From Promethearchaeota archaeon (GTDB lineage: Archaea > Asgardarchaeota > Lokiarchaeia > Sigyniarchaeales > SOKP01), in contig JAEOUA010000006.1 in NCBI GenBank assembly GCA_016839555.1, positions 64,001 through 128,000 of the forward strand: 64,000 nucleotides of DNA, read 5' to 3'. Numbering within the stretch: position 1 is the first letter of the stretch; every line of letters starts with the position of its first letter. A program made the translations under genes and the position numbers. Below the pieces are notes generated by a model. That model worked only from the letters and a program-made list of their open reading frames with translations. It was not told where the DNA came from and made no database searches. This document shows, piece after piece, positions 1-29,390 of this stretch.

Positions 1-1003
1 AATCAATGATATCAAACTTGCGAGAAGCTTCTCTTAGAGGAGTATCACTGGCAACTAAAGGGCGTGCTCCAGAATAGAATCTAATTATTCGATGTTTTCT
101 TACGGTTGGAATTAAATATTCGCCTTGATTTAAAATATATTCAATTTCATCTTTAGATGCCATTAACCTATCTAAATCTTCTAATTCCACGGGTTTTGAA
201 GTTGTTCCCAATATTATAGAGTTATGGCTTGGAACAATAATATCTGCATCTCCGGGTTTTCTCAAACGGTTAATTAAATGGCTTACTAAACGATCTTTGA
301 TGACAAGAAGAGTTCCCATAGTAGGAGCTATTCTAAGCGGGTGTGAAAGTTTTAAGTCCTTTTCCAGATATGAGGCCCATGGACCTGTTGCGTTAATTAC
401 TATATCTGCGTAATAGGACTTCTTTTTATTTTTTAAAAAATCAAAGCATTCTATTCCTATTATAGTCCCATCTTTAATGAGTAATTTTTCTGCTTTTGTA
501 TAGGTCTTAATTTTAGCTCCATGGAGTTGAGCATCATAAGCATTATAAAAGGTCAAAAGAAAGGGATCAATATATCCATCTTTTACTCGAAAAACACGTT
601 GAGTTTCAGGATTGCAGTTCGATTCATCTTTCAGAAAGGCTTCTGGCTCGATTTCCTCGCACCATACACCAGCTTTTTCACATTCTGTATTAAAGATATC
701 CCCGTAGTTTACATCTTCATCATTTACTGCCATAAAATAACCCCCACAAGCTTCGGTTATATGTGGTGCAATGTGCAGAAGTATTTTATTTTCTAGAGCA
801 CACTCGGTTGCAGCTTCTTTATCTTTATATACATATCTTGCTCCTGAGTGCAACATAGCATGACATCGGCCAGTCGTTCCCTCACTTAAATCATTTTTTT
901 CTACTAATAGGACTTTGAATCCTCTAAGACATAAGTCTCGGGCAATACCAACCCCTGTAATTCCTCCTCCAACTATAAGACAATTATATTTATCTTTACT
1001 CAT
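1..1003 (-). CDS. glpA: FAD-dependent glycerol-3-phosphate dehydrogenase subunit A (GlpA family), runs off the window start
   Basis: Absent from the ORF track. Manual translation from ATG at 1003 gives MSKDKYNCLIVGGGITGVGIARDLCLRG...LVEKNDLSEGTTGRCHAMLHSGARY...DGYIDPF...INATGPWA...GARPL, which are GlpA/GlpD motifs. Confidence 0.88.
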   Translation of the reverse strand, partial: MSKDKYNCLIVGGGITGVGIARDLCLRGFKVLLVEKNDLSEGTTGRCHAMLHSGARYVYKDKEAATECALENKILLHIAPHITEACGGYFMAVNDEDVNYGDIFNTECEKAGVWCEEIEPEAFLKDESNCNPETQRVFRVKDGYIDPFLLTFYNAYDAQLHGAKIKTYTKAEKLLIKDGTIIGIECFDFLKNKKKSYYADIVINATGPWASYLEKDLKLSHPLRIAPTMGTLLVIKDRLVSHLINRLRKPGDADIIVPSHNSIILGTTSKPVELEDLDRLMASKDEIEYILNQGEYLIPTVRKHRIIRFYSGARPLVASDTPLREASRKFDIID

Positions 1004-1078
1004 AATATATATCAATGCTCAATAATACTGTATTTTAAATATTAATTACAAAAAATTCATCTCAGAGTCTAAAATTTC

Positions 1079-1810
1079 TTAATTGTAGAAAATTAATATT
1101 CTCATTGCGATAAAAAAGACCAGTTGAATCACAACAAACCAAGGACTATGTGGACTTTCCCCGAGTTTAATTCGCTCTTTTTCAGGTATCATTAGAAATG
1201 TTAGGGCAAATATAAACGAAATCGAAAACCATGCAATATAATTCTGAATAGGTACATTGAATGGATCACTCGTTAATTTCCATGTCCAATAGTTCAATCC
1301 TATTGCGACAGGTTCCATGATATAATCAAAAAAAGTTGCCAGAAGCCCTACAATGAACGAAGAAAGCAATACTTTAGGGAAATTTTTTATTGGTGATTTG
1401 AATAGCTTTTCTATAAGCCATTCAGAAAACAACACTAATGAAAAGATAATAATTACCCAATTCAATCCTATTATCACTGGTACATCGAACAGCATAGGCC
1501 CAAGGACATTGCCATAATAATACGGTCCAAATACTAATGAATATGCAACACCAAGTACTTCCAGAGTAAAAGTAATTAAATACGCAATGAGAATCCAGAG
1601 GATTACATATTTTTTGTTATAACACTTGTGAATAGCCCAAATACCGGAAATTAATAATACATATGGAGTCAATACAATCATAAGCGGATAACTGGACTCT
1701 GAAAAATGACTGATAATTCCTACCGTAAAAAAAATCGATAATATTATTACTTGGAATCTCCAATCCAACAATATTGATTTAAGTTTAATTTTAGTTTTAA
1801 TTTCATTCAC
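1079..1810 (-). CDS. cruF: Carotenoid 1,2-hydratase, CruF family membrane protein
   Basis: Multi-TM protein with E-x-LGV...FGPYYYG..LGP..FDVP..IGLNW, D-x-x-MEP and P..NY..WF motifs; 2 bp downstream of crtD. Confidence 0.85.
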   Translation of the reverse strand: MNEIKTKIKLKSILLDWRFQVIILSIFFTVGIISHFSESSYPLMIVLTPYVLLISGIWAIHKCYNKKYVILWILIAYLITFTLEVLGVAYSLVFGPYYYGNVLGPMLFDVPVIIGLNWVIIIFSLVLFSEWLIEKLFKSPIKNFPKVLLSSFIVGLLATFFDYIMEPVAIGLNYWTWKLTSDPFNVPIQNYIAWFSISFIFALTFLMIPEKERIKLGESPHSPWFVVIQLVFFIAMRILIFYN

Positions 1811-1812
1811 AT

Positions 1813-3294
1813 TTAATCACCCGAAAATTTTTCGATAAGGTTCGCACATATTTTCCCCGATGAGATCACCAGCGGCATCCCCCCTCCTGGGTGAGCAGAG
1901 CTACTGCAGAAGTATAATCCTTTTATATTTTTACTTCTATTCCTATGCCGCATAAATGCAGACATTTTTGTATTCGAACTAATGCCATAAAGACTTCCAT
2001 AGGTGGATCCCGTTCTTTTCTCAATATGGGGTGGGGTAAGGATTCCTTCCGTTTCGATATGAGATTCTATATTAGTGCCTAACCGTTTTGACAGGAGATT
2101 AATGGTAGCTTTTCTTGCATTAGAAACTATTTCGTTCCAATTTTGATTACAATCTGCCGGTGCATTAAGAAGAACAAACCAGTTTTCACACCCTTCAGGA
2201 GCATCAGAAGGAGTTAATTTTGAAGTTATATTAACATATACCGTTGGTTCTTCTGGCATTGTTTTCTCTTCGAACATCGCTTTAAATTCGGCAGGATAAT
2301 TAGATGAAAAGAAAATATTATTGACCGAGAGCTCCTCAAAAGTTCTATTAATACCCCAATAGAACACTATACCGCTCGAACTAGGTTCCAATTTTTTGTA
2401 TCTTTTGGCTTGTTTCAGATCTGGTAAATCAAGAAGTTTATCGTATGTAGAGAGCACATCAGCATCAGATACAACTGCATCATAGTCTTTATCAGCGTAT
2501 TTCGTTGATATTCCACGTAACTTCTTATTCTGAAGATTTATTTTTTCGACTCGCTGATTAAAATAAAATTTAACACCTAAATCTACTGCAGCTTTATGAA
2601 TTTTTTTAGGGATTTCATAAATACCTTCTCCAATTCCATAACCACCACCAATATATTCTATAAATGGGATGATAATCATAGTTGCGGGTGTAAGAAAAGG
2701 ACTTGAACCATTGTAAGTAGCATATCTGTTAAAAAGTTGAACTATACGAGGGTCTTTAAAATATTTTTTATTAATTTTATTTAAAGTGCTAAAGGGATGG
2801 ATGCCTGCGAATCGAACCAACTTTAAAAGGGTAGAAGGCTTCAATAAAGTTCTTATTTCATGAATTGGCTGCGTGAGAAAAAGATTTCCACCTAATCGAT
2901 GCGCTTTTTCAGCTTCTTTTAAATATCTTTTTAGGGATTTTTGACTTCCTGGCGCTATTTTTTCCAGGTCTCGACCAAAATTATCGAGATCAGACCATGC
3001 TTTTAGATAGGTCCCGTCTGAGAGAAAATAGGTACAAATCTCTTTCAGCTTGACTAAGGTGAGTTCCTTATTGATATCTTTTCCTGCAGTTTTGAATACA
3101 TCCTCAAAAACCCAAGGCATTGTCACCAGTGAGGGACCAATATCAAATCTATATCCATCAAACGTTTCTTCGGCTGCTTTACCTCCAGGAAAGGATTGAG
3201 CTTCATATACATCTACATTCCATCCTTTAGATTTTAGATAGATTGATGCGGATAATCCACCTAGCCCTGCACCAATAATCGCAGCCGTTTTCAT
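1813..3294 (-). CDS. crtD: Phytoene desaturase family protein, most likely 1-hydroxycarotenoid 3,4-desaturase
   Basis: Likely start is ATG 3294 (MKTAAIIGAGLGGL, Rossmann fold); the longer track ORF overlaps the cyclase. Motifs FDIGPS, FNRYATYNGSSP, GSLYGISSN, HPGGGMPL; second CrtI paralog, adjacent to cruF. Confidence 0.75.
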   Translation of the reverse strand: MKTAAIIGAGLGGLSASIYLKSKGWNVDVYEAQSFPGGKAAEETFDGYRFDIGPSLVTMPWVFEDVFKTAGKDINKELTLVKLKEICTYFLSDGTYLKAWSDLDNFGRDLEKIAPGSQKSLKRYLKEAEKAHRLGGNLFLTQPIHEIRTLLKPSTLLKLVRFAGIHPFSTLNKINKKYFKDPRIVQLFNRYATYNGSSPFLTPATMIIIPFIEYIGGGYGIGEGIYEIPKKIHKAAVDLGVKFYFNQRVEKINLQNKKLRGISTKYADKDYDAVVSDADVLSTYDKLLDLPDLKQAKRYKKLEPSSSGIVFYWGINRTFEELSVNNIFFSSNYPAEFKAMFEEKTMPEEPTVYVNITSKLTPSDAPEGCENWFVLLNAPADCNQNWNEIVSNARKATINLLSKRLGTNIESHIETEGILTPPHIEKRTGSTYGSLYGISSNTKMSAFMRHRNRSKNIKGLYFCSSSAHPGGGMPLVISSGKICANLIEKFSGD

Positions 3295-3295
3295 T

Positions 3296-3982
3296 TTATT
3301 CGTCTCTTTTAAAGCTGAATTTATCCCTGAAGAGGAAATAGAAAATAAGATAAAGACTAATAAGAGTAAAACTATAAAAAAAATCTTCAATCGGTATGGA
3401 AATGACTCTCAGACCTATTATTGCATCACTATTGTAGGATACAATAGGCAAATAAGTAAAAATCCCATTAAAAATTAAAAATGGAATATAAGTCAAAATT
3501 AATCCAATTAAAGTCCAGCTGGATTGAAATTTTTCGTATGCTACCAAGCCTATTAATAGCATCGTAATAAAAAAAACTATTCCAATAAGCACTGTATAAC
3601 CTTTATCTAAAAACAAGATTAAAGGTAAAATCCCAATTGAACTAATAATAATAAATACATATCTCGGAATATGAAGGATCCTCTCTTTTGTATAGGCTCG
3701 CACACACTCATATATAAAAACAGTAGCATATGGAACCGCAATAAAAAAAATCCACTCACCTATAGGAAGATTAAATATTTTTAAAGTTCCTGCATAAGTT
3801 TCTGAGAAGGACCAATGCCCAATCTCGGTTACGATAATATCCCAAATAATATAACTGCTACTAACCACCAGCATACTCAAAAGCAAAGGGGGCCATCTAC
3901 GCCAAAATCCCACCTTTTTATCAAAAGATAAAAGAAAGGGAAATATAATTACTAAGAAATTCAACCAAAAATATAGTGCCAT
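3296..3982 (-). CDS. crtY: Lycopene cyclase, membrane-bound fused CrtYc/Yd type (two lycopene-cyclase repeats)
   Basis: Two repeats with WD...W.F...LPIGEWIFF and NG......YN...IG.R...IPIEDFFY; GAGG upstream of the ATG; crt context. Confidence 0.85.
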   Translation of the reverse strand: MALYFWLNFLVIIFPFLLSFDKKVGFWRRWPPLLLSMLVVSSSYIIWDIIVTEIGHWSFSETYAGTLKIFNLPIGEWIFFIAVPYATVFIYECVRAYTKERILHIPRYVFIIISSIGILPLILFLDKGYTVLIGIVFFITMLLIGLVAYEKFQSSWTLIGLILTYIPFLIFNGIFTYLPIVSYNSDAIIGLRVISIPIEDFFYSFTLISLYLIFYFLFRDKFSFKRDE

Positions 3983-4032
3983 ATACTTTTAACCTCATTA
4001 TCTTATAATTCTATATAAAATAATACTCACTT

Positions 4033-4079
4033 TTGCAGCTTCTTTAGCTTTATATACATATATCGAAGCTGTGTGGCAT
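4033..4079 (-). pseudogene. Decayed fragment of glpA (direct repeat of 808-836)
   Basis: 4033-4061 matches 808-836 at 28/29 nt; reads M-P-H-S...YVYKAKEAA vs glpA MLHSGARYVYKDKEAA. Confidence 0.7.
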
Positions 4080-4270
4080 CATATTTAAAATATTATTTAC
4101 AAAGAATTACACCCCATTTAAAAGCATTCGTTTTGTAAAATATAGATAAATACTTAAAAACCGATTTATTTAAAGCTCTTCTGAAAATAGTTCTATTTGA
4201 ACTGAATTTGAAACTAAGATTTAGTATTGTATACTTTCTTTCGTATTATCATTCCCTTTTTATTTTAATC

Positions 4271-5362
4271 CTAAAATAAATGCTCATCTACTATTTTAGA
4301 GCCATATTCTGCCTGGTGTACTCTTACTATATTATTTTCTGGAATGCCGATATTTTGGATCATATTTTGTACAGCATCTAGATCTTCAGTTCTACACAAA
4401 CAATGAATATTTGGGCCTGCATCAACGGTGAAATAACATTCAATCCCTTCTTTCTCTTTTTGCTTAACACCCTCTTCAACCATCTTATAAGTTTGGAAAA
4501 AATTATTTCGAGTATTTACTACCGCCTTTATTACCTTCAATGTATTTGGTTTCCAATAGAACAACGGGGGTTCCGAGGTCATCATAACACTATGCATATA
4601 CAAACAACTTTTCTCGGAGATCTCTCCCACAGTAGTAAAATCATCATTTTGAATTGCTTTTTTAATTTCTACGGCTTGTTTCTGGGATTCATTTATTTTA
4701 ATCTGATTGAAAACACTGGAGTGTGCCGCTTCTTGTCCTATATCAGAACTCACCTCTTTTTCTCCTCTATCGATTACTGCAATTACCGCAGCTATATTGA
4801 ATTCATTACATGGACATATTTGTTCTGCATAAGAAGTATCGTGAGAATATCCTTTATTCCAACATACGAATCCTCCATGAAGAGAGCGAGATGCGGAACC
4901 AGAACCTAATCTTGCATATTTTGAGAGTTCTATATTGTCTAAATTAAGGTTTAACGCATCAGCAGCACTAGTAGCGAGCGCAGCGAATGCAGATGATGAT
5001 GACGCTAACCCTGCAGCTGTCGGAAATTTATTTTGACTGACCATTTTAAAATTTAAAGTTGTACTCGCTAATTTTCTTAACGCATCAACCACTTTTAATA
5101 TTCTTTTCATCTGAATCTCATTAAAGGGAACTATAATCTCATCAGTTTTCAAAAAGCCCGTATCTTCATCATAATGTTCAGAAAATTCAATGGTGGTATG
5201 AGTAATCAATTCGATTCCTGATTTGGCAGTATTGATTGATTCCTTCGTCATGCTAACGCTGTCATTTGTAGGAATATTAAGGTGTGGTGGATGATCTCGA
5301 GATTTACCCCAATATTTTATCAGAGCAATATTTGGGTGTGCGAATGCTGAAGACTTTCCCAT
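4271..5362 (-). CDS. mvaD: Diphosphomevalonate/phosphomevalonate decarboxylase (GHMP, MVD family)
   Basis: AHPNIALIKYWGK, PTAAGLASSSSAFAA, RLGSGSASRS, DAGPNIH. Confidence 0.9.
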   Translation of the reverse strand: MGKSSAFAHPNIALIKYWGKSRDHPPHLNIPTNDSVSMTKESINTAKSGIELITHTTIEFSEHYDEDTGFLKTDEIIVPFNEIQMKRILKVVDALRKLASTTLNFKMVSQNKFPTAAGLASSSSAFAALATSAADALNLNLDNIELSKYARLGSGSASRSLHGGFVCWNKGYSHDTSYAEQICPCNEFNIAAVIAVIDRGEKEVSSDIGQEAAHSSVFNQIKINESQKQAVEIKKAIQNDDFTTVGEISEKSCLYMHSVMMTSEPPLFYWKPNTLKVIKAVVNTRNNFFQTYKMVEEGVKQKEKEGIECYFTVDAGPNIHCLCRTEDLDAVQNMIQNIGIPENNIVRVHQAEYGSKIVDEHLF

Positions 5363-5532
5363 TTTCTTATTTTATCCTCTTTTTATAATAAGCTATAAAT
5401 ATTATTCAAATATTATTGCGATTGTATTAATAACTTATGTTAATAATTAATATATTCATCTATAAATAAAGGTATTAAGTAAAAGAGGTTCTAATCTTAA
5501 GATTTTTTTAGAAAAGCTCTTCCAAGAATTAC

Positions 5533-5554
5533 GAACCCCTTATACAAAGGGTTC
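5533..5554. promoter_or_regulatory. Imperfect palindrome GAACCCCTT-ATAC-AAAGGGTTC in the divergent mvaD/HMGR intergenic region
   Basis: 9-bp arms with 8/9 complementarity, GC-rich in an otherwise very AT-rich spacer. Confidence 0.4.
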
Positions 5555-5640
5555 CATTTTCAACCCAATTATATTTAGGAAAAATCAATTAATAAATTAT
5601 AACCGAAGAAACTTTTTAGATATGAAGAACATTTTTACAT

Positions 5641-6804
5641 ATGAGTATGTATTCTTCAGAAATATCTGGTTTTTACAAGCTTTCTATAGAGGAAAGACTC
5701 AAACTTATTAAGGAAAAAGTTGGTTTAAGCGATGAAGAGACCAAGATTCTTAAGAATTTTGGTTATTTCCAACCAGAACAGATGGATATATTAATTGAAA
5801 ATGTAATAGCTAGTTATCAATTACCTTATTCAATAGCATGTAATTTTAAAGTGAATGGAAAAGATTATTTGGTTCCGATGGTCATAGAAGAGCCTTCAGT
5901 TGTAGCTGCCGCATCCAATGTGGCAAGAATGGCAAGGAAATTAGGAGGATTTCATAGTAAGAAAATTACACAGGTGATGATAGGACAAGTTCAGATTGTT
6001 AATGTGAAAAATATGGATGATGCTGTGAAAAATATTGAGATCCATAAGGAGGAAATTATTCGCCTCGCAAATGAAAAGGATCCTATTCTCATTAAACTGG
6101 GAGGAGGGGTTGAGGATTTAGAGATTCGACCTATTGATACTATAAAAGGTCCAATGATTATAGTTCATTTGCTTGTGAATGTCTTGGATGCAATGGGAGC
6201 AAACGCCGTAAATACAATGGCAGAAACAGTCGCTCCTTACTTGGAAGAATTAACTGATGGGAAAGTATATCTTCGGATCATCTCTAATTTAGCCACCCAT
6301 AGGATGGCAAAATGTAAAGCAACTTTTGATAAGGATATGTTAGGGGGTGCTGAAGTGGTTGAAGGGATAATGAATGCGTACGCTTTCGCCAAAGCAGATA
6401 TTTTTCGAGCATCTACCCACAATAAAGGGATTATGAATGGAATTATAGCCCTCACTTTAGCAACCGGTAATGATACTCGAGCAATAGAAGCCGGTGCTCA
6501 TACTTATGCCGCTTTAAACGGATATTCCCCACTAAGTACTTTTGATGTTGATTCAAATGGGAATTTAGTTGGTGAATTGGAGCTTCCCCTTGCGTTGGGG
6601 ATTATAGGTGGACTCACAAAGACACATCCATTAGCAAGAGTGTCTTTGAAAATTCTTGGAATTGATAACGCAGAAGAGCTAGCTCAAGTTGCTGTAGCTC
6701 TTGGACTCTGTCAAAATGTAGCGGCTTTACGTGCGCTAGCCTCAGAAGGGATACAAGCAGGACACATGAGGTTGCATAAAAGAAAGGAACAAAAAAAGAA
6801 TTAA
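5641..6804 (+). CDS. mvaA: Class II HMG-CoA reductase
   Basis: ENVI, PMVIEEPSVVAAAS, DAMGANAVNT, THNKGIMNGI, GNDTRA, GIQAGHMRLH. Confidence 0.93.
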   Translation: MSMYSSEISGFYKLSIEERLKLIKEKVGLSDEETKILKNFGYFQPEQMDILIENVIASYQLPYSIACNFKVNGKDYLVPMVIEEPSVVAAASNVARMARKLGGFHSKKITQVMIGQVQIVNVKNMDDAVKNIEIHKEEIIRLANEKDPILIKLGGGVEDLEIRPIDTIKGPMIIVHLLVNVLDAMGANAVNTMAETVAPYLEELTDGKVYLRIISNLATHRMAKCKATFDKDMLGGAEVVEGIMNAYAFAKADIFRASTHNKGIMNGIIALTLATGNDTRAIEAGAHTYAALNGYSPLSTFDVDSNGNLVGELELPLALGIIGGLTKTHPLARVSLKILGIDNAEELAQVAVALGLCQNVAALRALASEGIQAGHMRLHKRKEQKKN

Positions 6805-6849
6805 AGCTAAAATTTAAATGTATTTTATTTATTATCTATTTTTTACTGC

Positions 6850-8346
6850 TTAAACTAAATCTTTTTTAACATCATCTACAATCTTCTCACAAGCCAGTTG
6901 AGCAGAGATGATTGTAACGGGAACTCCAACTCCAGGATGGGTGTAATGCCCCGCATAATAGAGATTATTAACTTTATCACTTTTATGATGTGGTCTAAAT
7001 AATGCAGTTTGAAATAAAGTATGTGCCAACCCTAAGGCAGTTCCCTTATAGGCATTGAATGTTTTATTAAAATGTTCATGTGCAACAATTCTTTTTACTT
7101 CGATAGAGTCCCTAAATGATTCTCCAGTTATATTTTCAACTTTTTGAAGTATTTTATCAAAATATGGTTCACGATGGGATTCCATATCTTCAAGATCGGG
7201 AGATACTAACACGAGAATAGTCATGAGTTCCTTTCCTGGTGGAGCAAGTGATGGATCGGATTTAGAAGGAACAGTTATATAAATAGAGGGATCATCTGGC
7301 CATTCGGGATTTTCAAAAAGTTGATCGAAATATTTATCCCAATCTGAATTGAAATAGAAATTATGATGTAAAAAATTATTAAGCTTCTTGTTTAGACCAA
7401 GATAAACTAGGAATGCGGAAGGAGCGATCATCTTCTTTTTCCAGTATTTTTCGGTATATGACCTATATTTTTTATCCAATAATTCCATCTCTCCATGATG
7501 ATAATCTCCAGTACTTAAAATGATATCTGCTTCAAACTCTCCTTTATTTGTAATGATTTTTTTAGCTTTTTTGTCTTCTACCACGATCTTGGATACTTCT
7601 GTGCTGAATTCAATTTTTGCTCCTTGCTCTTGGGCAAGCTTCATTATCCCATCAACGATGGTTCCAAAACCTCCCATAGGATACCAAATTCCAAGGTTCA
7701 TATCAACATGGGCAAGCATAGAATAGACTGCAGGACTAGTTGGCGGAGAAGCGCCCACAAATGCCACATGATATTGAACTATTTTACGTGCTTTATCGCT
7801 GGTAAAAAATTTTTTTGCGTATTTATTCAGTTTCTTAAAAATATGTAGCTTTAATCCGTCTATAATGAGTGTTTTATCCAATAAGTCCCGAACACTCCAA
7901 TAATCCCTGTATAGAAACTTGTTTACCGCAATATCATACATTTTTTGGGAGGATTCTATAAAGTTCTTTAGCTTTTTACCTCCATCTTTTTCAAAGGTGT
8001 CGAATAGCTCGTAATTTTTATTCATATCGTCCATAATGTCTAATGATTCACTCTCACTGAAGAACACTCGATAATGGGGATTTAAACGTATTGTTTCATA
8101 ATAATCTTCAGGTTTTTTACCGAATTGGGCAAAAAGATTATCAAACGCTTCTAACATCATATACCATGACGGCCCCATATCAAAAGTATATCCATCTTTT
8201 TTCCACACCATAGCGCGTCCTCCTGGTCTGTCATTTTTTTCAAGAACGGTCACATCAAAACCTTCTTTAGCTAAAAGCGCAGCAGATGAGAGCCCGCAAA
8301 ATCCGGCGCCTATAACAAATACTTTTCTTCCTTTTATTTCATTCAT
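6850..8346 (-). CDS. crtI: Phytoene desaturase
   Basis: VIGAGFCGL, FDMGPSWY, GTALGLAHTLFQTALFRP, YTHPGVGVP; directly downstream of crtB (likely start ATG 8346; track start 8358). Confidence 0.92.
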   Translation of the reverse strand: MNEIKGRKVFVIGAGFCGLSSAALLAKEGFDVTVLEKNDRPGGRAMVWKKDGYTFDMGPSWYMMLEAFDNLFAQFGKKPEDYYETIRLNPHYRVFFSESESLDIMDDMNKNYELFDTFEKDGGKKLKNFIESSQKMYDIAVNKFLYRDYWSVRDLLDKTLIIDGLKLHIFKKLNKYAKKFFTSDKARKIVQYHVAFVGASPPTSPAVYSMLAHVDMNLGIWYPMGGFGTIVDGIMKLAQEQGAKIEFSTEVSKIVVEDKKAKKIITNKGEFEADIILSTGDYHHGEMELLDKKYRSYTEKYWKKKMIAPSAFLVYLGLNKKLNNFLHHNFYFNSDWDKYFDQLFENPEWPDDPSIYITVPSKSDPSLAPPGKELMTILVLVSPDLEDMESHREPYFDKILQKVENITGESFRDSIEVKRIVAHEHFNKTFNAYKGTALGLAHTLFQTALFRPHHKSDKVNNLYYAGHYTHPGVGVPVTIISAQLACEKIVDDVKKDLV

Positions 8347-8354
8347 TGTTATTT

Positions 8355-9194
8355 TCACTTCTTTCTAATCTTAAATATGTTTTTTAAAACAGTTCTAATT
8401 ATCTTTCCTTTAGAAGGCTTCACTTTTTCTTCATATACAATAAATGGGTTTTCTTTGATTTTTAACGCAGTCCATTTATACATATCTGAAGCTGTTTGAA
8501 TAGGGATCCAATATCTTCTTGGGATATATTTAAATCCATTTTCTGCTTCTTCTTGCCACTTAAGATATAGTTCGATTTGATCCCTAAAGAATCTCTCAAA
8601 TTCCTCTTTATTGTTCATCGCTTCTTCTTTCGTTAAGTTTTTTAGATCATAATCCCCTAAAGGAAAATACCGTCTTCCTAACTTAATATCTTCCTTAATA
8701 TCTCTAATAAAATTAATATACTGCATTGCTCTCCCAAGTCTCTCCGCAGCAAAATATGCATTTTCTGATAAATCAAGAATTTTAGCCATAAATAGCCCAA
8801 TAACTTCCGCAGACCCATAGATATATTCAAGTGTTTCATCTAATGAATTATAAACTTTTTTTGTAAGATCTAATTCCATTGAATGCAGAAATGCATCAAC
8901 CCACTCAGGTTTAAACTCTTTTCTTCGCATTAGATCAACGAAATATTCAATAACAAAATTATCAATTTTTTTACCTGAGAGTGCTTCTTCATACAAACGA
9001 CGAAAATTCAAAAATTCCTCCCGTTGTTGGGGTATTGTATCAACATAATTGTCAGCAACCCTCACAAATCCATATAAGATAAATACATCTTCTCTTACTG
9101 ATTTTGGAAAGAATATACTACTATTAAAGTAAGTAGTGCTGCCTTTTCGAAATATTTCTTCGAATTTCTTTTGAATATCTCTTGATAATACCAT
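8355..9194 (-). CDS. crtB: Phytoene synthase
   Basis: YGFVRVADNYVD, YIYGSAEVIG, LGRAMQYINFIRDIKED..LGRRYFP. Confidence 0.93.
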   Translation of the reverse strand: MVLSRDIQKKFEEIFRKGSTTYFNSSIFFPKSVREDVFILYGFVRVADNYVDTIPQQREEFLNFRRLYEEALSGKKIDNFVIEYFVDLMRRKEFKPEWVDAFLHSMELDLTKKVYNSLDETLEYIYGSAEVIGLFMAKILDLSENAYFAAERLGRAMQYINFIRDIKEDIKLGRRYFPLGDYDLKNLTKEEAMNNKEEFERFFRDQIELYLKWQEEAENGFKYIPRRYWIPIQTASDMYKWTALKIKENPFIVYEEKVKPSKGKIIRTVLKNIFKIRKK

Positions 9195-9665
9195 TATGTT
9201 AATTTTTTAAAACTAATTTTTATAATTTGTTTTTATTAAATATTAATTTTCAAATAAGATCAGAATAGAGAAAGAAAGTTAAAATATAGTGAGAACATAG
9301 AAAAATTGAAAAAAAGGCTTTAAATGATATTTTTTAAACTCTAATATCTCATATAGGTTCATAATGCTATAAAACTATTGATTTAGATAGGAGAATCAAA
9401 TTTTTGAGAACTTAATAAATAATTATGATAAAAATTTATATGCAGTCACCTTAAGATTTAATTATCTGAGAAGATAAACATAAAGCAAAAATGAAGAGAT
9501 CACCTTCAAAATTTAAAATATATACATTAGATTTTGACATCTCGAAAAATTTATAGTTTAATGATGGATATAGCAAATTCTATTTTACAAATTATTGAAA
9601 CAGAACACGTAAATATAATATAAAACAAAGTTTTAAATTTATCCTTATTTTATAATAAAAATAAT

Positions 9666-10181
9666 ATGGTAAATCTTTTTGATTATTTGCCTTATCCATA
9701 CGGAATAATAATTTCTATAGGTGCTATTATCTTTGCTACAGTATCAATGGAAGGTGTAGCATGGTTTCTTCACAGGTACGTGATGCACCAATTTGGTTGG
9801 TATCTTCATGAGGACCATCATCGATATACAAAAGGAAGATTCCAAAAGAACGATATTTTTGCCTTGATTTTTGCGATATTATCAATAATATTAATTATTC
9901 TTGGATTAAGAGTATACAATCTTCTCTTCTGGTTGGGAATGGGTGTTTCTATATATGGTTTGGGTTATTTTCTCTTTCACGATGTATTATTTCACAAGAG
10001 GATAAAAAATCACTATCGACCAAAAAAAGAGTATATGAAGAGAATATTCGATGCTCACTCATATCATCATCAAACTACTAATTCAAAGGGATCGGGGGGA
10101 TATTCATATGGTTTCCTCTATGCTTCTAAGAAATATAGCACTTTAATAAAAGATTTACAAATAAAAAAGAAGAATGTATAA
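9666..10181 (+). CDS. crtZ: Beta-carotene 3-hydroxylase (non-heme di-iron, fatty-acid-hydroxylase superfamily)
   Basis: ME..AW..HRYVMH..GW..HEDHH, F..ND.FA, YFLFHD...H.R, AH..HH, YGFL. Confidence 0.9.
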   Translation: MVNLFDYLPYPYGIIISIGAIIFATVSMEGVAWFLHRYVMHQFGWYLHEDHHRYTKGRFQKNDIFALIFAILSIILIILGLRVYNLLFWLGMGVSIYGLGYFLFHDVLFHKRIKNHYRPKKEYMKRIFDAHSYHHQTTNSKGSGGYSYGFLYASKKYSTLIKDLQIKKKNV

Positions 10182-10187
10182 TAAAAG

Positions 10188-11810
10188 ATGACCGAATCAA
10201 AAAATGATGATTTTTTCTTTAATGTAGGTATTGATTCAATGGGTTTCTACACATCAAAGTATTACGTGGATCTGAGAGATTTAGCTGAAGTTAGAAATGT
10301 CGATCCAAACAAGTATTTAAAGGGTCTTCTGACAAAAGAAATGCGTATTCCAGGACCCGGAGAAGATATTGTAAGTATGGCGTTAAAAGCCGGCCAAAAT
10401 GCTTTGATGAGAGGAAATATTGATCCAAGTGAGATCGATGCCATATTCCTGGGTACAGAAACGATGACATACGCTGTGAAGTCTGTATCTAATATTCTTG
10501 CAGAAATCTTGAACACTTCACTAAATTGTATAACACAAGATGTCTATAATGCATGTGCGGGTGAAACTCTAGCAGTTTTAAACGCTATAGGACTCATTAA
10601 TAACGGAATAATCAATAAAGCACTCATTATCGGAGCAGATATTTGTAGTTATGAGTTGGAAAGCCCTGGAGAGCCTACTCAAGGAGCGGCAGCGGCAGCT
10701 GTAGTCATTACCAAAAATCCTCGAATAGCAAAATTTGGCAAAAGATTTGGAAAATTTACTGCTAACATAAATGACTTTTACAGATTGCCTTATGAGGATC
10801 ATCCTGTTGTGTTTGGGCAGTACTCTATAAATTCATATATTAGATTTCAGCAGGGAGCATTTGATGATTTCTTCAAAGAAGTGGATTCTATTATACCCGA
10901 TTATTTAGCTTTCCATTCTCCTTTTGCAAAATTACCCTTAAAAAATATCCAGAACTTACTCCTCACTAGATGGGACATATTGAAAAAAATATTACTCGAG
11001 AAACCTATTAATACTGCATCTTCGGTAAAAGTCCAAGAAGAGGCTGTCGAAAATGTGATTAAACTACTTGATAATGTTTTAGAGCCCCTAAATGAAAAGG
11101 AAAAGTTTGTCAACGTCAATGAGATAAAAGAAAAATTACTTAAGAGTATCACACATAAACTCCTGCCAAGTCTCAACGTCCCAATGTCTATCGGAAATAT
11201 GTATTCTGCATCTATATGGTCTCAATTAATTTATCTATTGGAAAGTGTGGTAGACAAAGATGATTTAATATATTTTGGATCTTACGGCTCAGGAGCAACT
11301 TGTATTTCTGGTATGCTGAAAGTTATGCCAGAAGTTTCAGAATTCCGCAAAAAATATCCAACAGTGAACAATTTTATCCAAAATAAAGAGCGTAAATCTA
11401 TTGAAGAATATGAAAAATTAAGAGACAAAAATGATGCTCAAGAAGTTATTTATGCCCAAATTGAACCACACCCTACCGAAGAGAATCATTTTATCGTATT
11501 AAATATGTGTGAAGGAGCTTGTATATCATCAAAATTGAATGGATTAGAGTTTTGTCCAAAAGGGAGACACGAAACTTATCAAAGAAAGCTTCCTTTATAC
11601 GCGGTGGTAAAAGAAATTCCTCTCCAGAATATTGTTGATGAGGATCTATTCAGTTCCTCAATAGTGAGAGTATCTGAAGATGTTAAAAAAGGTGATACAG
11701 TTGAATATAACCTTCTTCGAGCCGGAAAAAATGAATCTATGGTTTGCATAGAGAGTGGTTATATTAATTGGATTCCTACCTACAAACCGATCACTCATCC
11801 ACTCACATAA
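10188..11810 (+). CDS. mvaS: HMG-CoA synthase with C-terminal Zn-ribbon/OB-fold (DUF35-like) extension
   Basis: GTET, catalytic NACAG, GEPTQGAAAAA, FHSPF, GNMYSAS, SYGSGA; extra ~120-aa C-terminal domain. Confidence 0.88.
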   Translation: MTESKNDDFFFNVGIDSMGFYTSKYYVDLRDLAEVRNVDPNKYLKGLLTKEMRIPGPGEDIVSMALKAGQNALMRGNIDPSEIDAIFLGTETMTYAVKSVSNILAEILNTSLNCITQDVYNACAGETLAVLNAIGLINNGIINKALIIGADICSYELESPGEPTQGAAAAAVVITKNPRIAKFGKRFGKFTANINDFYRLPYEDHPVVFGQYSINSYIRFQQGAFDDFFKEVDSIIPDYLAFHSPFAKLPLKNIQNLLLTRWDILKKILLEKPINTASSVKVQEEAVENVIKLLDNVLEPLNEKEKFVNVNEIKEKLLKSITHKLLPSLNVPMSIGNMYSASIWSQLIYLLESVVDKDDLIYFGSYGSGATCISGMLKVMPEVSEFRKKYPTVNNFIQNKERKSIEEYEKLRDKNDAQEVIYAQIEPHPTEENHFIVLNMCEGACISSKLNGLEFCPKGRHETYQRKLPLYAVVKEIPLQNIVDEDLFSSSIVRVSEDVKKGDTVEYNLLRAGKNESMVCIESGYINWIPTYKPITHPLT

Positions 11811-11889
11811 TTTTAAAGATTATTTAAGCTTATTTGCTACAACTCGAGGATCAAAACCGAAAAAATCGCAGAAAAAAATAAAAAAAAGT

Positions 11890-12993
11890 TTATATTCGTT
11901 TAAATTCTATTTTCCTTTCTTCTATCCATTCTTTTAGAGAAGAACTAATTACAACAGGGGCTTTTTTTAATTCATCAATATTTTTACTCCCAGTTAATAG
12001 CATTGTAATTTTTAATTCTCTAAAGGTTTGTTCAATAAACGTTTCTATGGAATCCTGTCCTTCTAACGCAACCATAAGAAATGGTCTAGCTAAGGCTGCA
12101 AAATTTGCTCCAAGCCTTAGTGCTTTGGCGATATCAATTCCACTTCTAATTCCTCCGCTGCCAATTATTTGAATGGATGAAGGTCTATTTACCACTGACT
12201 TCACCTCAAGGATACTAGCTGCCGTTGGAATCCCCCAATCCCAAAATAGTTTGCCTAATTCCCTTTTAGATACTTCCCCATATTTTTTTGCTCTATAAAA
12301 TTCCACAGCCACCCAACTAGTTCCTCCTACCCCAGACACATCAATAATATTAATTCCGATATCAAACAATTGTTGAGCAATCTCCTTAGAAATTCCGCAA
12401 CCCGTTTCCTTAATCACTATGGGAACATCTAACTGATCCTTGAGCATTTGTATTTTTTCAATTGCTCCAGAAAACATATTATCACCTTCAGGTTGAATGA
12501 CTTCTTGAATCACATTGAGATGTATCGCTACAGCGTCCGCATCGATATTATCTATAATTTCTTGGACATACTTAAAACTTTCGGAGGTTGTAATTTGAGC
12601 GATTCCAATATTTCCAACGATAGGTATGTCTGGAGCGCATTCTCTTACCACAGAAAAAGAACTTTTTGTTTCTGGATGCTTAAGGATAACTCTTTGACTT
12701 CCCACCATCATTGGGATTTTATATTTTTGAGCCGCTTTTGCAAGTGAAACATTAATTTTTTTTGTCAATTCTGTTCCACCAGTCATTGCTCCAACGAAAA
12801 CTGGTGCTGTTATTGATTTTCCTAAAAATTCACAAGAAAAAGTAAGATCATCTAAATTTAATTCTGGTAGGGTATTATGCACGAATGTGACATGCTCAAG
12901 CCAAGTTGTTTGGTTGCTTTCAACTTTCTCTTGACTTACGAGTAAAATATGTTCATCCTTTCTATTTGTAATTGGAATTTTTCTTATTTCCAT
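11890..12993 (-). CDS. fni: Type 2 (FMN-dependent) isopentenyl-diphosphate isomerase
   Basis: RKDEH, AMTGG, VGSQR, HLN..QE..QPEGD, KETGCG, GGTSW, WGIPT, SGGIR.G.D. Confidence 0.95.
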   Translation of the reverse strand: MEIRKIPITNRKDEHILLVSQEKVESNQTTWLEHVTFVHNTLPELNLDDLTFSCEFLGKSITAPVFVGAMTGGTELTKKINVSLAKAAQKYKIPMMVGSQRVILKHPETKSSFSVVRECAPDIPIVGNIGIAQITTSESFKYVQEIIDNIDADAVAIHLNVIQEVIQPEGDNMFSGAIEKIQMLKDQLDVPIVIKETGCGISKEIAQQLFDIGINIIDVSGVGGTSWVAVEFYRAKKYGEVSKRELGKLFWDWGIPTAASILEVKSVVNRPSSIQIIGSGGIRSGIDIAKALRLGANFAALARPFLMVALEGQDSIETFIEQTFRELKITMLLTGSKNIDELKKAPVVISSSLKEWIEERKIEFKRI

Positions 12994-13230
12994 ATATATA
13001 CACTTTATAAATAAAGGTGGTATTTAGTATTAAATTTAAAATTTCTAAATCACTTTATCTTTTTTAATTTTATGTAAATATTTTAGTAATAAATCAATTA
13101 TTTCTAAGCGTTTATTTATTTAGGAATTATATTCTTAATTTTATAGAAGAGGAATATAAAAGAGAGAATGGGAAGTAATATTCCTTTTATAAAAAATTTT
13201 GAGAAGGTAGGATTTACTAGGAAAGTTTTT

Positions 13231-13341
13231 TTACTTTACTAAAGAATAGTAAGGTTCCTTAATCATATTTTCTTCAAGGAAAAAATCCAAAATTTCTTTG
13301 AATTTTGTCCCGCTAATTCCCGTTTCTAAACTGATATCTCG
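13231..13341 (-). pseudogene. Remnant of a winged-helix DNA-binding protein
   Basis: Start-less reading frame RDISLETGISGTKFKEILDFFLEENMIKEPYYSLVK*, HTH-like; in-frame stop two codons upstream. Confidence 0.4.
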
Positions 13342-13560
13342 CTTTTAATACAGTACTATGCTTAAATAACTTCTAATAAACGCTTTTAAGATTCAGAATA
13401 TTTTATTTTTTTCTATTATTATATATCAAAATTAAAAATTTGCCAATAAAATTAAAATTAAGGTTTATATTTTAAAATTATGAATAGATTGTATTATCTT
13501 ACTAGATAAAATGTTAGAATATTATCTTAAAAAATCCTTAAAAAAAATAATGTGATAAAA

Positions 13561-14310
13561 ATGAAAAGATTGGTGCTTTTAAGACACGGAGAGAGCCTCT
13601 GGAATAAGGAAAATAGATTCACCGGTTGGACGGATATTGATTTAACTCAAAAAGGATATGAGCAAGCAAAAGAAGCAGCGAGAAAATTAAAGGAAAAAGG
13701 ATTCACTTTTGATATTGCTTACACTTCATTTCTTAAAAGAAGCATTAGAACATTATGGATTGTTTTGGATGAAATGGATTTGATGTGGATTCCAGTCTAT
13801 CGCTCTTGGAAGTTAAATGAACGCCATTATGGGGCACTTCAAGGATTATATAAAACAGAAATCGCGAAAGAATTTGGGGAAAAACAAGTACTCATATGGA
13901 GAAGGAGTTTTGATATTCCTCCTCCTGCTCTTAAAACTACAGATCCACGATTTCCCCAATATGAAGAAAAATATAGAAATCTGGATTTGGAGGATATTCC
14001 TTTAACAGAATCTCTTAAAGACACTATTGCTCGTGTTCTTCCATATTGGAATGATATTATTGTCCCAAGTATCAAATCGGGTCTTAAAGTTTTAATATCT
14101 GCTCATGGGAATAGTCTAAGAGCAATTGTTAAAATTTTAGATAATATCCCAGATGATGAAATTATCAAATTAAATATCCCGATAGGGATTCCTCTCGTGT
14201 ATGAATTAAAAGATACCTTAGAACCAATAAAGAGTTATTATTTAGCTGAAGAGGAGGATTTAGAAAAAGCTATTAAAGAGGTAGAAGATCAAGGAAAAAT
14301 AAAGAAATAA
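13561..14310 (+). CDS. gpmA: 2,3-bisphosphoglycerate-dependent phosphoglycerate mutase
   Basis: [41 protein letters not shown]. Confidence 0.96.
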
Positions 14311-14462
14311 CACAAAATAATGGAGCTTTATAAAGGTTAATTTTTACATTCCTTTTTCCCTAAAAATTTATTTTTGCATTATGTTTTTTATTTTATATCA
14401 ATTTTTCATATCTTTTATATAGAAAGAATTAGCGTATGAAATATTTTTGTTCTTTTGATCAT

Positions 14463-15098
14463 TCAGCCCTTTGATGCGACCCATTTATCTTGAAAAATAA
14501 TTAGATATAAAGTGATGATGATAGTCATTATCATGAAAAATATAGTATCAATTAACCATGAAAGAGTCGCAATTAAAAAAAACAAGCCTCTATTTCCAAA
14601 CATCCAATGATTTTGAGCCGATATGAAAGCTTTTTCTGCAATATCAATTGCTTTAAATTCTCCTTTAGAGTATTTTATCGCATCTCCGCTCAAGAGGATG
14701 CTTACTCGGACAATATAACGTATGGAAAGAATGAAATTGAACAATGAAAAAAATGCAATTATACTATTTACTCCCATCTGGACAAATCTTAGAGGTAAGA
14801 ATTCTATGCCAAAAAAGGGTGTTTTGGTAAAAATTGCGGCGTTGTACACCCCAACCAATATTCCAATAAGAACTAATAATCCAGAAATAAATGTAGCATT
14901 GCCCATGATAAAATTTCGCAAGGATTGAGTAGCGTATAATAAATTTTCATCATTAGCCCTATTTTTCACCCAATTTTTATATACTAAATTCAATGTAGTT
15001 CTCTGAGAGGGTTTGCCTCGCCTGGATATTATTATTAAAAGGATTAAATATCCTACTAAACAGAATAAAAATAAGATAAGAGCGATTTCATCAAACAT
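14463..15098 (-). CDS. DUF599-family membrane protein
   Basis: W.....Q.LRN.IM...F pattern, ~4 TM segments, G.R..FF near the C-terminus. Confidence 0.65.
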   Translation of the reverse strand: MFDEIALILFLFCLVGYLILLIIISRRGKPSQRTTLNLVYKNWVKNRANDENLLYATQSLRNFIMGNATFISGLLVLIGILVGVYNAAIFTKTPFFGIEFLPLRFVQMGVNSIIAFFSLFNFILSIRYIVRVSILLSGDAIKYSKGEFKAIDIAEKAFISAQNHWMFGNRGLFFLIATLSWLIDTIFFMIMTIIITLYLIIFQDKWVASKG

Positions 15099-15287
15099 TT
15101 TTTCAAAAAACTATAATTTTAATTTTTTTATTTTTTATCACTTATTATATGTTTTATTTAAGGAAGGTTTAAAAATCTTAATGAATTCAAAACTAATTAT
15201 CTATCAATTTAGAATTTAAAGTGATTAAATATTTTAATTAGCACCATTTTAATAGTAATTACTTTTATTTCTGTAATTCTTTTAATT

Positions 15288-26201: not shown

Positions 26202-26207
26202 TAATGG

Positions 26208-29200: not shown

Positions 29201-29390
29201 GCCTCAGACTAAAAAAAGATTGCAAGTCTTACGGAAAATTTGGAGAAAATACAAAAATAATCGAAATTGGAAAGTCTTAATAAGAGATTTAAAAGGGTTC
29301 CTTATCGGAAAAGGTGCTATTAAGAAGGAACCCTTAAAACCTTTTGATAAAACTAAATTAAAATTGATTACTTTAGATTTTATTTCCTAA
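26208..29390 (+). CDS. PLD-nuclease domain fused to SNF2-type helicase
   Basis: LHGKAYIFD...VGSSNFT (HKD), ADSVGLGKT, IDESHNFRN, TATP.NN, SEGQNLQ, NYDLHWNP...QRAGRIDRIG; 6 bp after the MTase. Confidence 0.9.
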   Translation: MRDMIPKEFIDNSDGNKLHDFLNEILKYCPKTSVDIATAFFNIDAYTMIRKNLEEISRFRLLLGKPPMINIKTTLGDFLLKQVREEIEGFDLTREIDEDMKHFRNFLQKDIVEVKLFKNFLHGKAYIFDNSVIVGSSNFTSAGLTREGELNTVRLEAQADAIRSKWFEKFWNLSDDFKNDLIELIENSRFGSREYTPYEIFIKTLYEFQKEELMEEEKDEETGLPKTKVNLAEFQDDAIARIWSRLKKYNGCIVADSVGLGKTWIAKKILEKIGYYERKNILVICPAQLRHMWRKELKSIDVKENILSQEQLAMDDFLEKALDVLGGRTDDLELIVIDESHNFRNPLSNRWENLFTLINDHIVKEDVRPNMLFLTATPINNTPWDLFWQVMLITLSDNSAFIKENILDLFSFFKKATLNSSILNDLLNEISIRRTRDYIVKNYPDAYIMVPNSEGVLEEKKIIFPDRLLENINYNLDVAYEGMYRQIADTISDKLKMAYYQLLEYKKEGVLTDAEKLALGRMIGIGGIFKTILLKRLESSVESFRISIDRHITFLEKLKKYLEMGRLLTKKSFHKYVLSIDEELTVEELKEELENFDKDKYKIKELFDGIDLDIRYLSDILDKVKNITPDKDAKFTVLKEKLLELSKEGQIVVFTYYADTLNYIYREILKDTRFSHLNIEAISSTGESNKTPKQRTKIIDDFFDKKIDIILSTDVLSEGQNLQTAKYLINYDLHWNPTRMIQRAGRIDRIGSPFNEIFVYNFFPEEELEELLKLVQILQNKIADIDKSVGLDQTVLGEEIHPKVFGIIRRIREKDADTLDELEADTYGGGESFYQPLKDFLKTSAIEKLEAIPNGLYSGLEKTKRIKGIFFYYKYAKDFHFWYLYDIVSNTIITNKTEILEYIQCDQTEPRVIPDFFEKVYEINKAILEKIERDYSEIELSQTQDSKLKDISRQRSTRFLKKLMDEVELQLDDYLDKYPTDDDIEKEWEEVEDLLVSTPQTKKRLQVLRKIWRKYKNNRNWKVLIRDLKGFLIGKGAIKKEPLKPFDKTKLKLITLDFIS

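Follow-up and report, generated by a model that had tools for sequence, protein, structure and literature searches.

In Algoriphagus, the saproxanthin/flexixanthin-type gene set (crtB, crtI, a cyclase gene, cruF, crtD and crtZ), joined there by the ketolase gene crtW, leads to flexixanthin, a monocyclic carotenoid (PMC10784355). A myxol cluster in Nonlabens spongiae, consisting of crtB, crtI, crtY, cruF, crtD, crtA-OH and crtZ, was predicted to yield 'myxol and/or zeaxanthin'; each gene was tested in Escherichia coli, and myxol is the compound made (PMC11855829). Among Asgard archaea, the Heimdall-type 'Ca. Kariarchaeum pelagium' has crtB, crtI, a putative lyeJ, crtD and a glycosyltransferase gene (PMC12137139), and Lokiarchaeia appear in the carotenoid context as a few CrtI-family sequences in one survey (PMC9907078). 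Here we describe a ten-gene cassette from the genome of a sediment-dwelling Lokiarchaeial archaeon (G000, the host genome), located in the 64,000-nucleotide stretch that was analysed (hereafter the window; positions 64001-128000 of contig C5 of G000). We regard it as likely that the cassette is intact, mosaic in ancestry and domesticated by its host, and that it combines a bacterial-style monocyclic-xanthophyll pathway with archaeal mevalonate genes that have taken over from the native ones.

The Loki cassette shares its enzyme families with the Algoriphagus flexixanthin system (a fusion-type CrtYcd, CruF, CrtD and CrtZ), as well as the monocyclic class of its predicted product. The Algoriphagus marincola locus holds a crtD that is 41% identical to that of the window, and no other cluster gene was detected there. 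The two systems differ in that the Loki genes include no crtW ketolase, which makes saproxanthin rather than flexixanthin the predicted product, and in that the host is an archaeon whose crt genes are interleaved with genes of the mevalonate (MVA) pathway. Nonlabens provides functional evidence for the CruF, CrtD and CrtZ steps and the same logic leading from gene set to product. However, it has a flavin adenine dinucleotide (FAD) cyclase of the CrtY type and a 2'-hydroxylase, CrtA-OH, which is absent in Loki, and its MVA genes are not clustered with the pigment genes.

The Heimdall-type set also belongs to an Asgard host, and its CrtI is 46-50% identical to, and in the same clade as, the Loki CrtI. 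Both there and in the haloarchaeal C50 bacterioruberin route, the acyclic end is modified by CruF- and CrtD-family enzymes, as is expected of the Loki cassette. Yet these routes contain lyeJ, lack a cyclase and crtZ, and lead to acyclic elongated products, whereas the Loki locus combines a cyclase, crtZ and MVA genes. No UbiA/lyeJ-type open reading frame (ORF) occurs in window 1-16000, the part of the genome searched for lyeJ, and the arrangement typical of the C50 route, a LyeJ of the UbiA family adjoining cruF and crtD, was not seen there.

Closest of all to the cyclase, crtD and cruF genes of the window are operons of the order crtI-crtB-crtYcd-crtD-cruF in metagenome-assembled genomes (MAGs) of Spirochaetota and Verrucomicrobiota, which are known from their genes alone. 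Spirochaeta aurantia makes 1'-hydroxytorulene-type pigments; our literature search returned no product for these operons and nothing on Spirochaeta with hydroxytorulene. In a Spirochaetaceae genome, UBA5200 (L037, 4405-15700), the crt operon is flanked by genes for IDI-2 and HMGS on one side and HMGR and MDD on the other, nine gene families in all that are also found in the Loki cassette. These bacterial operons nevertheless differ from the Loki cassette in having crtI before crtB rather than crtB before crtI, in their far higher guanine-plus-cytosine (GC) content, and in their bacterial MVA genes, which are only 28-38% identical.

The enzymology of such pathways is already known, as are crt genes in Heimdall-type Asgards, and proteins of the host's relatives stand in public databases (NCBI) under generic names. 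In the literature that we searched, the cassette is described for no Asgard genome, and neither a Lokiarchaeial cyclase/CrtZ pathway nor a displacement of native mevalonate genes is reported. A preliminary description of this DNA had allowed that the cluster might already have been characterised in Asgard genomes, and the search gave no sign of this.

Gene content and layout of the cassette

Ten back-to-back ORFs without a single internal stop occupy window 1079-12993, and their families were assigned with Pfam and NCBIfam. The gene list of the preliminary description proved correct, with all ORFs intact at the expected coordinates and matching the expected families. We distinguish a module A, made up of MDD, HMGR, crtI, crtB, crtZ, HMGS and IDI2, and a module B, made up of crtYcd, crtD and cruF. 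Lengths below are in amino acids (aa) and model scores in bits.

1079-1810, minus strand: cruF-like carotenoid 1',2'-hydratase, 243 aa, GTG start, last gene of module B; PF04240 Caroten_synth 90.8 bits (cut-off 25)
1813-3294, minus strand: crtD, 1-hydroxycarotenoid 3,4-desaturase, 493 aa; NF042421 497.2 bits (cut-off 500), TIGR02734 335 bits
3296-3982, minus strand: crtYcd, fused heterodimer-type lycopene beta-cyclase, 228 aa; two PF18916 domains (81.6 bits), TIGR03462 91.1 bits
4271-5362, minus strand: MDD-family (diphospho- or phospho-)mevalonate decarboxylase, 363 aa; TIGR01240 249.5 bits (cut-off 171), PF22700, PF18376
5641-6804, plus strand: class II HMG-CoA reductase (HMGR), 387 aa; TIGR00532 480.7 bits (cut-off 259.95)
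6850-8358, minus strand: crtI, phytoene desaturase, 502 aa; NF058655 642.3 bits (cut-off 640), TIGR02734 474.1 bits (cut-off 238.1)
8355-9194, minus strand: crtB, phytoene synthase, 279 aa; PF00494 SQS_PSY 161.6 bits
9195-9665, no strand: divergent intergenic region between crtB and crtZ-HMGS, putative promoter region
9666-10181, plus strand: crtZ-type carotene beta-ring 3-hydroxylase, 171 aa; PF04116 39.7 bits (cut-off 31)
10188-11810, plus strand: HMG-CoA synthase (HMGS), Loki long form, cassette copy, 540 aa; PF01154 68.7 bits, PF08540 56.3 bits
11890-12993, minus strand: type 2 isopentenyl diphosphate isomerase (IDI-2), 367 aa; TIGR02151 419.2 bits (cut-off 281.3)

The alternating layout reported earlier stands, although the genes fall into five strand blocks (-,+,-,+,-) rather than four. 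Within module B, a single base separates the crtYcd stop from the crtD ATG. The most likely crtD start is the ATG at 3294, which gives 493 aa as in the public gene call, rather than that of a longer TTG ORF reaching 3390. In a joint CrtI/CrtD tree, this protein is placed in the CrtD half (support 100), beside CrtD of the Spirochaetota/Verrucomicrobiota operons. The cyclase has the two domains, in one polypeptide of about 230 aa, that define a fusion-type CrtYcd, and both domains were recovered again in our Asgard survey. The cruF-like ORF sits directly after crtD, a conserved position, and shows 33-42% identity to cruF genes located after crtD in operons of Spirochaetota, Verrucomicrobiota and Ignavibacteria.

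The crtB assignment is supported by a 4-nucleotide (nt) overlap with crtI and by 50-58% identity to crtB of Spirochaetota/Verrucomicrobiota crt operons. The crtZ ORF, a predicted hydroxylase, carries the four His boxes of the CrtZ-type FA_hydroxylase fold, HRYVMH (residue 36), HEDHH (48), HDVLFH (105) and HSYHH (131), which match Bacteroidota CrtZ column for column. Only 6 nt lie between the end of crtZ and the start of HMGS; the two genes, one for pigment and one for mevalonate, therefore probably share a transcript. The cassette HMGS scores 248.7 bits against TIGR01835 (cut-off 360). Native and cassette HMGS of Loki genomes are alike in being a 540-aa long form that falls below every NCBIfam HMGS equivalog cut-off.

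Both divergent intergenic regions contain conserved elements in an alignment of seven cassette genomes. In 9195-9665, which we read as a candidate divergent promoter region, a TATA-like box lies about 35-45 nt upstream of crtZ, within a block of the form ATAT..TATAA...AAA.TTTTA. In 5363-5640, between MDD and HMGR, a TATA-like box about 30-45 nt upstream of HMGR is kept, as is a TTC.AA.AA element about 100 nt upstream of the same gene. Rfam and tRNA scans of the window gave no matches. As had been noted earlier, GGPP synthase and mevalonate kinase (MVK) are encoded outside the window: both are on contig C4, a different contig from that of the cassette, with geranylgeranyl diphosphate (GGPP) synthase candidates at C4:126794 and C4:179899, and MVK at C4:137682-138653.

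Host identity and assembly integrity

The host is a genuine Loki-type (Promethearchaeota) archaeon, as the preliminary description had proposed, and a chimeric contig or bacterial contaminant is excluded. The G000 genome comprises 3.74 Mb in 12 contigs and is 92% complete, with an estimated contamination of 6.4%. The 604-kb contig that carries the cassette ends in an archaeal 16S gene, and the genome encodes several actin homologues (up to 447 bits). Public proteins 76-88% identical to those of the host are labelled Promethearchaeota or Lokiarchaeota, and Promethearchaeum syntrophicum belongs to the same order. GC content is uniform, at 0.29-0.30 in all contigs, and the ten cassette genes fall within the genome's own distribution of GC and GC at third codon positions (GC3). 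The cassette ORFs are intact and compositionally ameliorated, and the genes on the cassette flanks are of Asgard type.

Further, in a different sample of the source study, contigs span glpA/cruF, crtYcd/MDD/HMGR, crtI/crtB and crtB/crtZ/HMGS without a mismatch. A marsh sample of another study contains near-identical pieces, on partial contigs that bridge no gene junction.

Distribution and arrangement among Asgard genomes

Among 400 Asgard genomes searched, the cassette is found in at least eight Loki genomes of three genera in one family. The fused two-domain cyclase occurs in 8 of the 400, all in family f1, and its carriers are spread over genus g1 (G000 and four of six other genomes), g6 (one of six) and g2 (two of 42). 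CrtD orthologues with 74-81% identity were found in G002, G004, G005, G006 and G022, that is, in four congeners of the host and one genome of another genus, and a CrtD homologue at 45% in another family.

The cassette behaves as two modules that are arranged differently between genomes. Module B lies upstream of module A in G000 and G005, downstream of it in G022, G253 and G276, and at a separate locus in G002, G004 and G006. G022 has kept module B, and no crtZ match was found in that genome. In G004, an extra HMGS copy beside the cassette HMGS is apparently split into two ORFs, whose halves show 58% and 81% identity (contig C257, L023, 2772-7400).

Ancestry of the carotenoid genes

Module B is clearly of a bacterial, Spirochaetota/Verrucomicrobiota-like type, judging from similarity, gene order and phylogeny. 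Outside the Loki clade, CrtD matches reach only about 50% identity, and the named ones among them come from Spirochaetota first, followed by Ignavibacteria, Verrucomicrobiota and Bacteroidota. Compared with the Spirochaetota/Verrucomicrobiota operons, CrtI, CrtB and CrtD of the window are 44-58% identical (CrtD 46-50%), and CrtYcd and CruF 33-41%. The order crtYcd-crtD-cruF is common to both. In a bootstrapped, unrooted tree of concatenated CrtYcd, CrtD and CruF (974 columns), the eight Loki genomes and Spirochaetota/Verrucomicrobiota are split from Ignavibacteriota and Bacteroidota with support of 100/99. Loki module B is thus nearer to the version in Spirochaetota and Verrucomicrobiota than to that of Bacteroidota. 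Since the cassette is rare in Asgards and the operon widespread in bacteria, transfer would have run from bacteria to Loki.

The preliminary description spoke of bacterial-type xanthophylls; among the genes, a clear bacterial affinity is limited to crtYcd-crtD-cruF, and crtI falls in a clade that also contains other Asgard lineages. The CrtI tree shows a polytomy (support of 91 by the Shimodaira-Hasegawa-like approximate likelihood ratio test, SH-aLRT) of the Loki clade with G031, Asgard family f31, contig L147 and the Spirochaetota/Verrucomicrobiota group. In other Asgard families, CrtI (46-50% identity) is accompanied by a second oxidase, in agreement with the crtB/crtI/lyeJ/crtD set published for a Heimdall lineage (PMC12137139). 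CrtZ relatives are found in other crt clusters; the closest (63-65%) is on L147, and a CrtZ-like homologue with 46% identity lies elsewhere in the Spirochaetaceae UBA5200 genome.

L147 itself is an ENA metagenomic contig (GC 0.276) on which genes for a lycopene cyclase, crtI (53%), a PAS/DUF835 sensor, crtB (53%), crtZ (65%), a UbiA prenyltransferase, UvdE and a DNA photolyase follow in a row (1759-13085). This row has the appearance of a light/UV island and seems related to module A.

Displacement of native mevalonate genes

The presence of MVA genes in the cassette had earlier been taken as a co-located precursor supply. The genes are indeed there, but mere local supply does not describe them, as they are archaeal xenologues standing in for a lost native HMGR and IDI-2. 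In relatives that lack crt genes, HMGS and HMGR form a native pair a few kb from IDI-2, and class II HMGR is the single HMGR throughout the host's order. Even within the genus, cassette and native copies share just 61-70% identity for HMGR, 44-49% for HMGS and 36-40% for IDI-2, and are too divergent to be orthologues. Cassette copies are 64-89% identical among themselves. Gene trees place them in clades of their own (support 98 for HMGR and 100 for HMGS) and unite the native HMGS of G000, G001 and G005 in one group; the HMGR tree, for which a Spirochaete sequence served as root, is poorly resolved owing to a long outgroup branch.

The nearest non-cassette relatives of IDI-2 (49-55%) come from other Promethearchaeota and Njordarchaeia, and those of MDD (50-57%) are archaeal; taken together, these neighbours are other Promethearchaeota, Njordarchaeia, Bathyarchaeota and Hodarchaeota, at 49-57%. 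By these comparisons the four cassette MVA genes are archaeal, yet foreign to the host's family.

An origin of the whole nine-gene cluster in a UBA5200-like Spirochaete was considered and rejected. The Loki MVA genes are 28-38% identical to bacterial genes and 50-70% identical to archaeal ones, which suggests that crt and MVA genes came to be clustered convergently in Loki and UBA5200, and that the MVA genes were not imported together with crt.

G000 has one HMGR (a single PF00368 match), one IDI-2 and one MDD, all of them in the cassette. It also retains a native archaeal-type mevalonate locus (C4:132065-141703; L115:2065-11703) with UbiX, a UbiD-family decarboxylase, the large and small subunits of AcnX, isopentenyl phosphate kinase (IPK), MVK, HMGS and undecaprenyl diphosphate (UPP) synthase. 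The HMGS of this locus (C4:138851-140464; L115:8848-10473) is a second, native-type copy. In the syntenic locus of G005, a native HMGR stands between HMGS and MVK; the same position in G000 holds about 195 bp. Elsewhere among the relatives, IPK and IDI-2 are fused into a 636-aa protein in the native locus (L026:17456-19366 in G008; also G001 and G016), while IPK is unfused in G000 and G005.

This comparison indicates that G000 has lost, by deletion, both its native HMGR and the IDI-2 part of the native IPK-IDI2 fusion, and the cassette copies are now housekeeping genes there, the sole HMGR and IDI-2. All isoprenoid flux, for membrane lipid and pigment alike, would then pass through the cassette enzymes. 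Cassette genes have displaced the native housekeeping genes stepwise, since seven of the eight cassette genomes have the cassette HMGR alone and G005, which has both copies, appears to be at an intermediate stage.

The MDD-type decarboxylase

The archaeal mevalonate pathway consists of MVK, phosphomevalonate dehydratase, a UbiD-type decarboxylase with UbiX, and IPK. Decarboxylase-type routes consist either of MVK, phosphomevalonate decarboxylase (PMD) and IPK, or of MVK, phosphomevalonate kinase (PMK) and diphosphomevalonate decarboxylase (MDD). The native C4 locus encodes the first of these, and the cassette decarboxylase belongs to the MDD/PMD family, so both kinds of route appear to coexist in G000, with HMGR and IDI-2 supplied from the cassette only. 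Our search of the literature for Lokiarchaeota with the mevalonate pathway and phosphomevalonate found nothing.

Among 41 relatives, the MDD-type gene is confined to the cassette genomes and G016. Its earlier label, 'mvaD', is right as to family (TIGR01240), and uncertain as to a diphosphate substrate: no PMK was recognisable among the five GHMP-family proteins of G000. Because of this absence, phosphomevalonate, used ahead of IPK, is the more likely substrate. The PMD model NF040704 gives 169.8 bits (cut-off 475), and the top PDB matches score almost equally and do not separate MDD from PMD. PDB entries 6N0X-6N0Z are, we presume, the phosphomevalonate decarboxylase of Anaerolinea. With the native MVK and IPK, the MDD-type enzyme would probably add a decarboxylation branch, driven by ATP, that runs parallel to the native dehydratase/UbiD route.

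Predicted pigment

The saproxanthin/flexixanthin-type gene set is complete in the cassette, and polyprenyl synthases are encoded elsewhere in G000. CrtB and CrtI would convert GGPP, whose synthase is also encoded elsewhere, to lycopene. The fused CrtYcd would close a beta-ring, CruF would hydrate the open end at C-1',2', CrtD would desaturate C-3',4', and the di-iron CrtZ would hydroxylate the ring at C-3. The main product would be saproxanthin, with 1'-hydroxytorulene expected if CrtZ is missing or O2 absent, and zeaxanthin if the cyclase closes both ends. We predict saproxanthin or 1'-hydroxytorulene by analogy, because the crt genes are those of the Algoriphagus flexixanthin set without its ketolase. 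Such a pigment would be orange and hydroxylated. The preliminary description had likewise recognised a bacterial monocyclic-xanthophyll set without lyeJ, and its saproxanthin or zeaxanthin remains a sensible prediction.

Weighing the alternatives

Several points weigh against an intact, imported pathway that now serves its host. On models built for individual enzymes, the cruF-like ORF scores far below cut-off (TIGR03460 51.4, cut-off 154.7; NF041333 49.5, cut-off 300; NF045693 35.5, cut-off 400), crtD is 3 bits short of the NF042421 cut-off of 500, and the crtB ORF reaches 72-91 bits on CrtB equivalogs with cut-offs of 480-550, with HpnD/HpnC models scoring similarly. The product and the enzyme activities are predicted from gene content, and the CrtYcd sequence does not distinguish one ring from two. 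The trees leave the origin of crtI and crtB as a polytomy; the bacteria-to-Loki direction of module B transfer is read from distribution alone, the tree being unrooted; and a cassette tree that matches the genera is compatible with vertical descent and many losses. At 92% completeness, statements about sole gene copies are fallible, a concern that the clean deletion at the syntenic native locus counters for HMGR. Finally, CrtZ needs O2, and CrtI and CrtD need O2 or a quinone-type acceptor, yet the relatives of G000 are known as anaerobes, and cytochrome bd, the terminal oxidase that was looked for, gave no match in G000.

As for origin, bacterial DNA joined to an archaeal contig by faulty assembly or binning might be suspected from the bacterial nearest relatives of the crt genes and from the contamination estimate. 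This has next to no chance of being right, given the archaeal 16S and Asgard-type flanking genes on the 604-kb contig, a composition that matches the genome, Loki-type MVA genes interleaved with crt, junctions bridged in other samples, and independent assembly of the cassette in at least eight MAGs. The crt genes could alternatively be old in Asgards, inherited vertically with repeated loss, so that the cassette would be ancestral to the Loki family rather than a bacterial import. CrtI of several other Asgard families, at 46-50% identity, shares the polytomy of the Loki CrtI, the crtI of G031, from another Loki family, falls inside the Loki clade itself (support 100), and the cassette tree agrees with the genus groupings g1, g2 and g6. 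We nevertheless find this history quite improbable: the fused cyclase is confined to a single family, module B goes strongly with Spirochaetota/Verrucomicrobiota in sequence and operon order, and the cassette MVA genes stand as xenologues next to native ones, the two sets occurring together in G005 and G253. Other Asgard lineages also have a different second oxidase and a lyeJ-type set (PMC12137139). The mosaic of bacterial-style pigment genes and archaeal MVA genes remains our preferred account.

Its product and purpose can also be read differently. If CrtYcd acted on both ends before CrtZ, bicyclic zeaxanthin would be the main product and CruF and CrtD would touch only minor intermediates; fused CrtYcd enzymes can be bicyclases, CrtZ is present, and the Nonlabens enzyme set was predicted to give either type (PMC11855829). 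This is conceivable but doubtful, as crtYcd-crtD-cruF is tightly packed and conserved across all cassette genomes and the bacterial relatives alike, which points to one substrate stream, as G022 has module B and no crtZ match, and as analysed bacteria with the gene set make monocyclic flexixanthin (PMC10784355) and myxol (PMC11855829). A monocyclic product is thus still preferred. Whatever its rings, the pathway might mainly serve rhodopsins, with CrtB, CrtI and CrtYcd making beta-carotene for retinal and the hydroxylated carotenoid perhaps acting as an antenna, as hydroxylated carotenoids do on Asgard rhodopsins of Heimdall type (PMC12137139). Among the 41 relatives, type-1 rhodopsins are confined to crt-bearing genomes (G002, G004, G006 and G031, with a fragment in G005); these proteins of about 202 aa have an F-S-E motif, are schizorhodopsin-like, and lie each in a different neighbourhood (L129:9867-10478 in G006, L130, L131, and L132:8248-8856 in G031). 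Photolyase is enriched in the same direction (5/7 crt-bearing relatives vs 5/34 others), and the closest CrtZ relative, on L147, adjoins photolyase and UvdE. However, the relatives are kin, and the co-occurrence of rhodopsin and photolyase with crt amounts to about two independent lineages. G000 has neither heliorhodopsin nor photolyase, and no type-1 rhodopsin was found in it by Pfam (with no positive control in the control set) or by tblastn with the relatives' schizorhodopsins; schizorhodopsin is absent also from G022, G253 and G276. No Blh/Brp (PF15461) matched in the 41 genomes, in a search whose controls gave none either, and G000 thus shows no retinal module in the sense of Blh/Brp and rhodopsin in one genome. 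CruF and CrtD are unnecessary for retinal, and heliorhodopsin is common in relatives whether crt genes are present or not. A chiefly rhodopsin-serving pathway is therefore unlikely, and retinal supply is at most a secondary role.

Light, oxygen and retention of the cassette

Candidate roles of the pigment are photoprotection, antioxidant function and membrane modulation; the preliminary description had suggested a possible membrane rigidifier or antioxidant. The cassette would be hard to lose now that HMGR and IDI-2 come from it, and this dependence may explain why it is intact in a genome without other light-related genes.

We tentatively speculate, without putting much weight on it, that the cassette is a self-stabilising adaptive island marking a Loki lineage of the lit, intermittently oxic sediment surface. 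Such an island would combine a photoprotective or antenna xanthophyll with an O2-requiring last step, an ATP-driven decarboxylase that bypasses the oxygen-sensitive Fe-S dehydratase and prenylated flavin mononucleotide (prFMN) decarboxylase, and its own HMGR and IDI-2, whose takeover from the native copies would bind the host to the island. In relatives, schizorhodopsin and photolyase come on top; G000 would have shed both, yet remained 'addicted' to the cassette.

Other genes in the window

The remainder of the window holds several genes of separate interest. At 17388-18629 (minus strand), 4 kb downstream of the cassette, a 413-aa protein fuses a Ras/Roc/Arf-like small GTPase domain to an ArsR/IclR-type helix-turn-helix. 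The 355-aa protein encoded at 21228-22295 (minus strand) weakly resembles PCNA over residues 95-335 (34 bits, under the cut-off) and is extended by some 90 aa at its N terminus. The plus strand of 22557-29390 encodes first a 1214-aa Eco57I/MmeI-type methyltransferase and then a 1060-aa SNF2/helicase protein bearing a PLD-like nuclease domain, probably a restriction/defence pair, and an Imm5-like immunity protein is encoded at 30972-31466.

Implications

The cassette is a clear natural case in which housekeeping genes were replaced by xenologues that arrived inside a secondary-metabolite cluster, and it points to a way in which a genome may come to fix an accessory pathway. Two mevalonate routes, a dehydratase/UbiD route and an MDD-type one, may moreover operate in parallel in a single archaeon.

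Studies of Lokiarchaeia treat them as anaerobic relatives, living in sediment, of the eukaryotic host lineage. If the pathway is what it seems, an intact route to a cyclised, hydroxylated carotenoid with an O2-dependent step, then some Lokiarchaeia would meet light or oxygen, or would have carotenoids in their membranes, with a bearing on both the ecology and the membrane biology of Asgard archaea.

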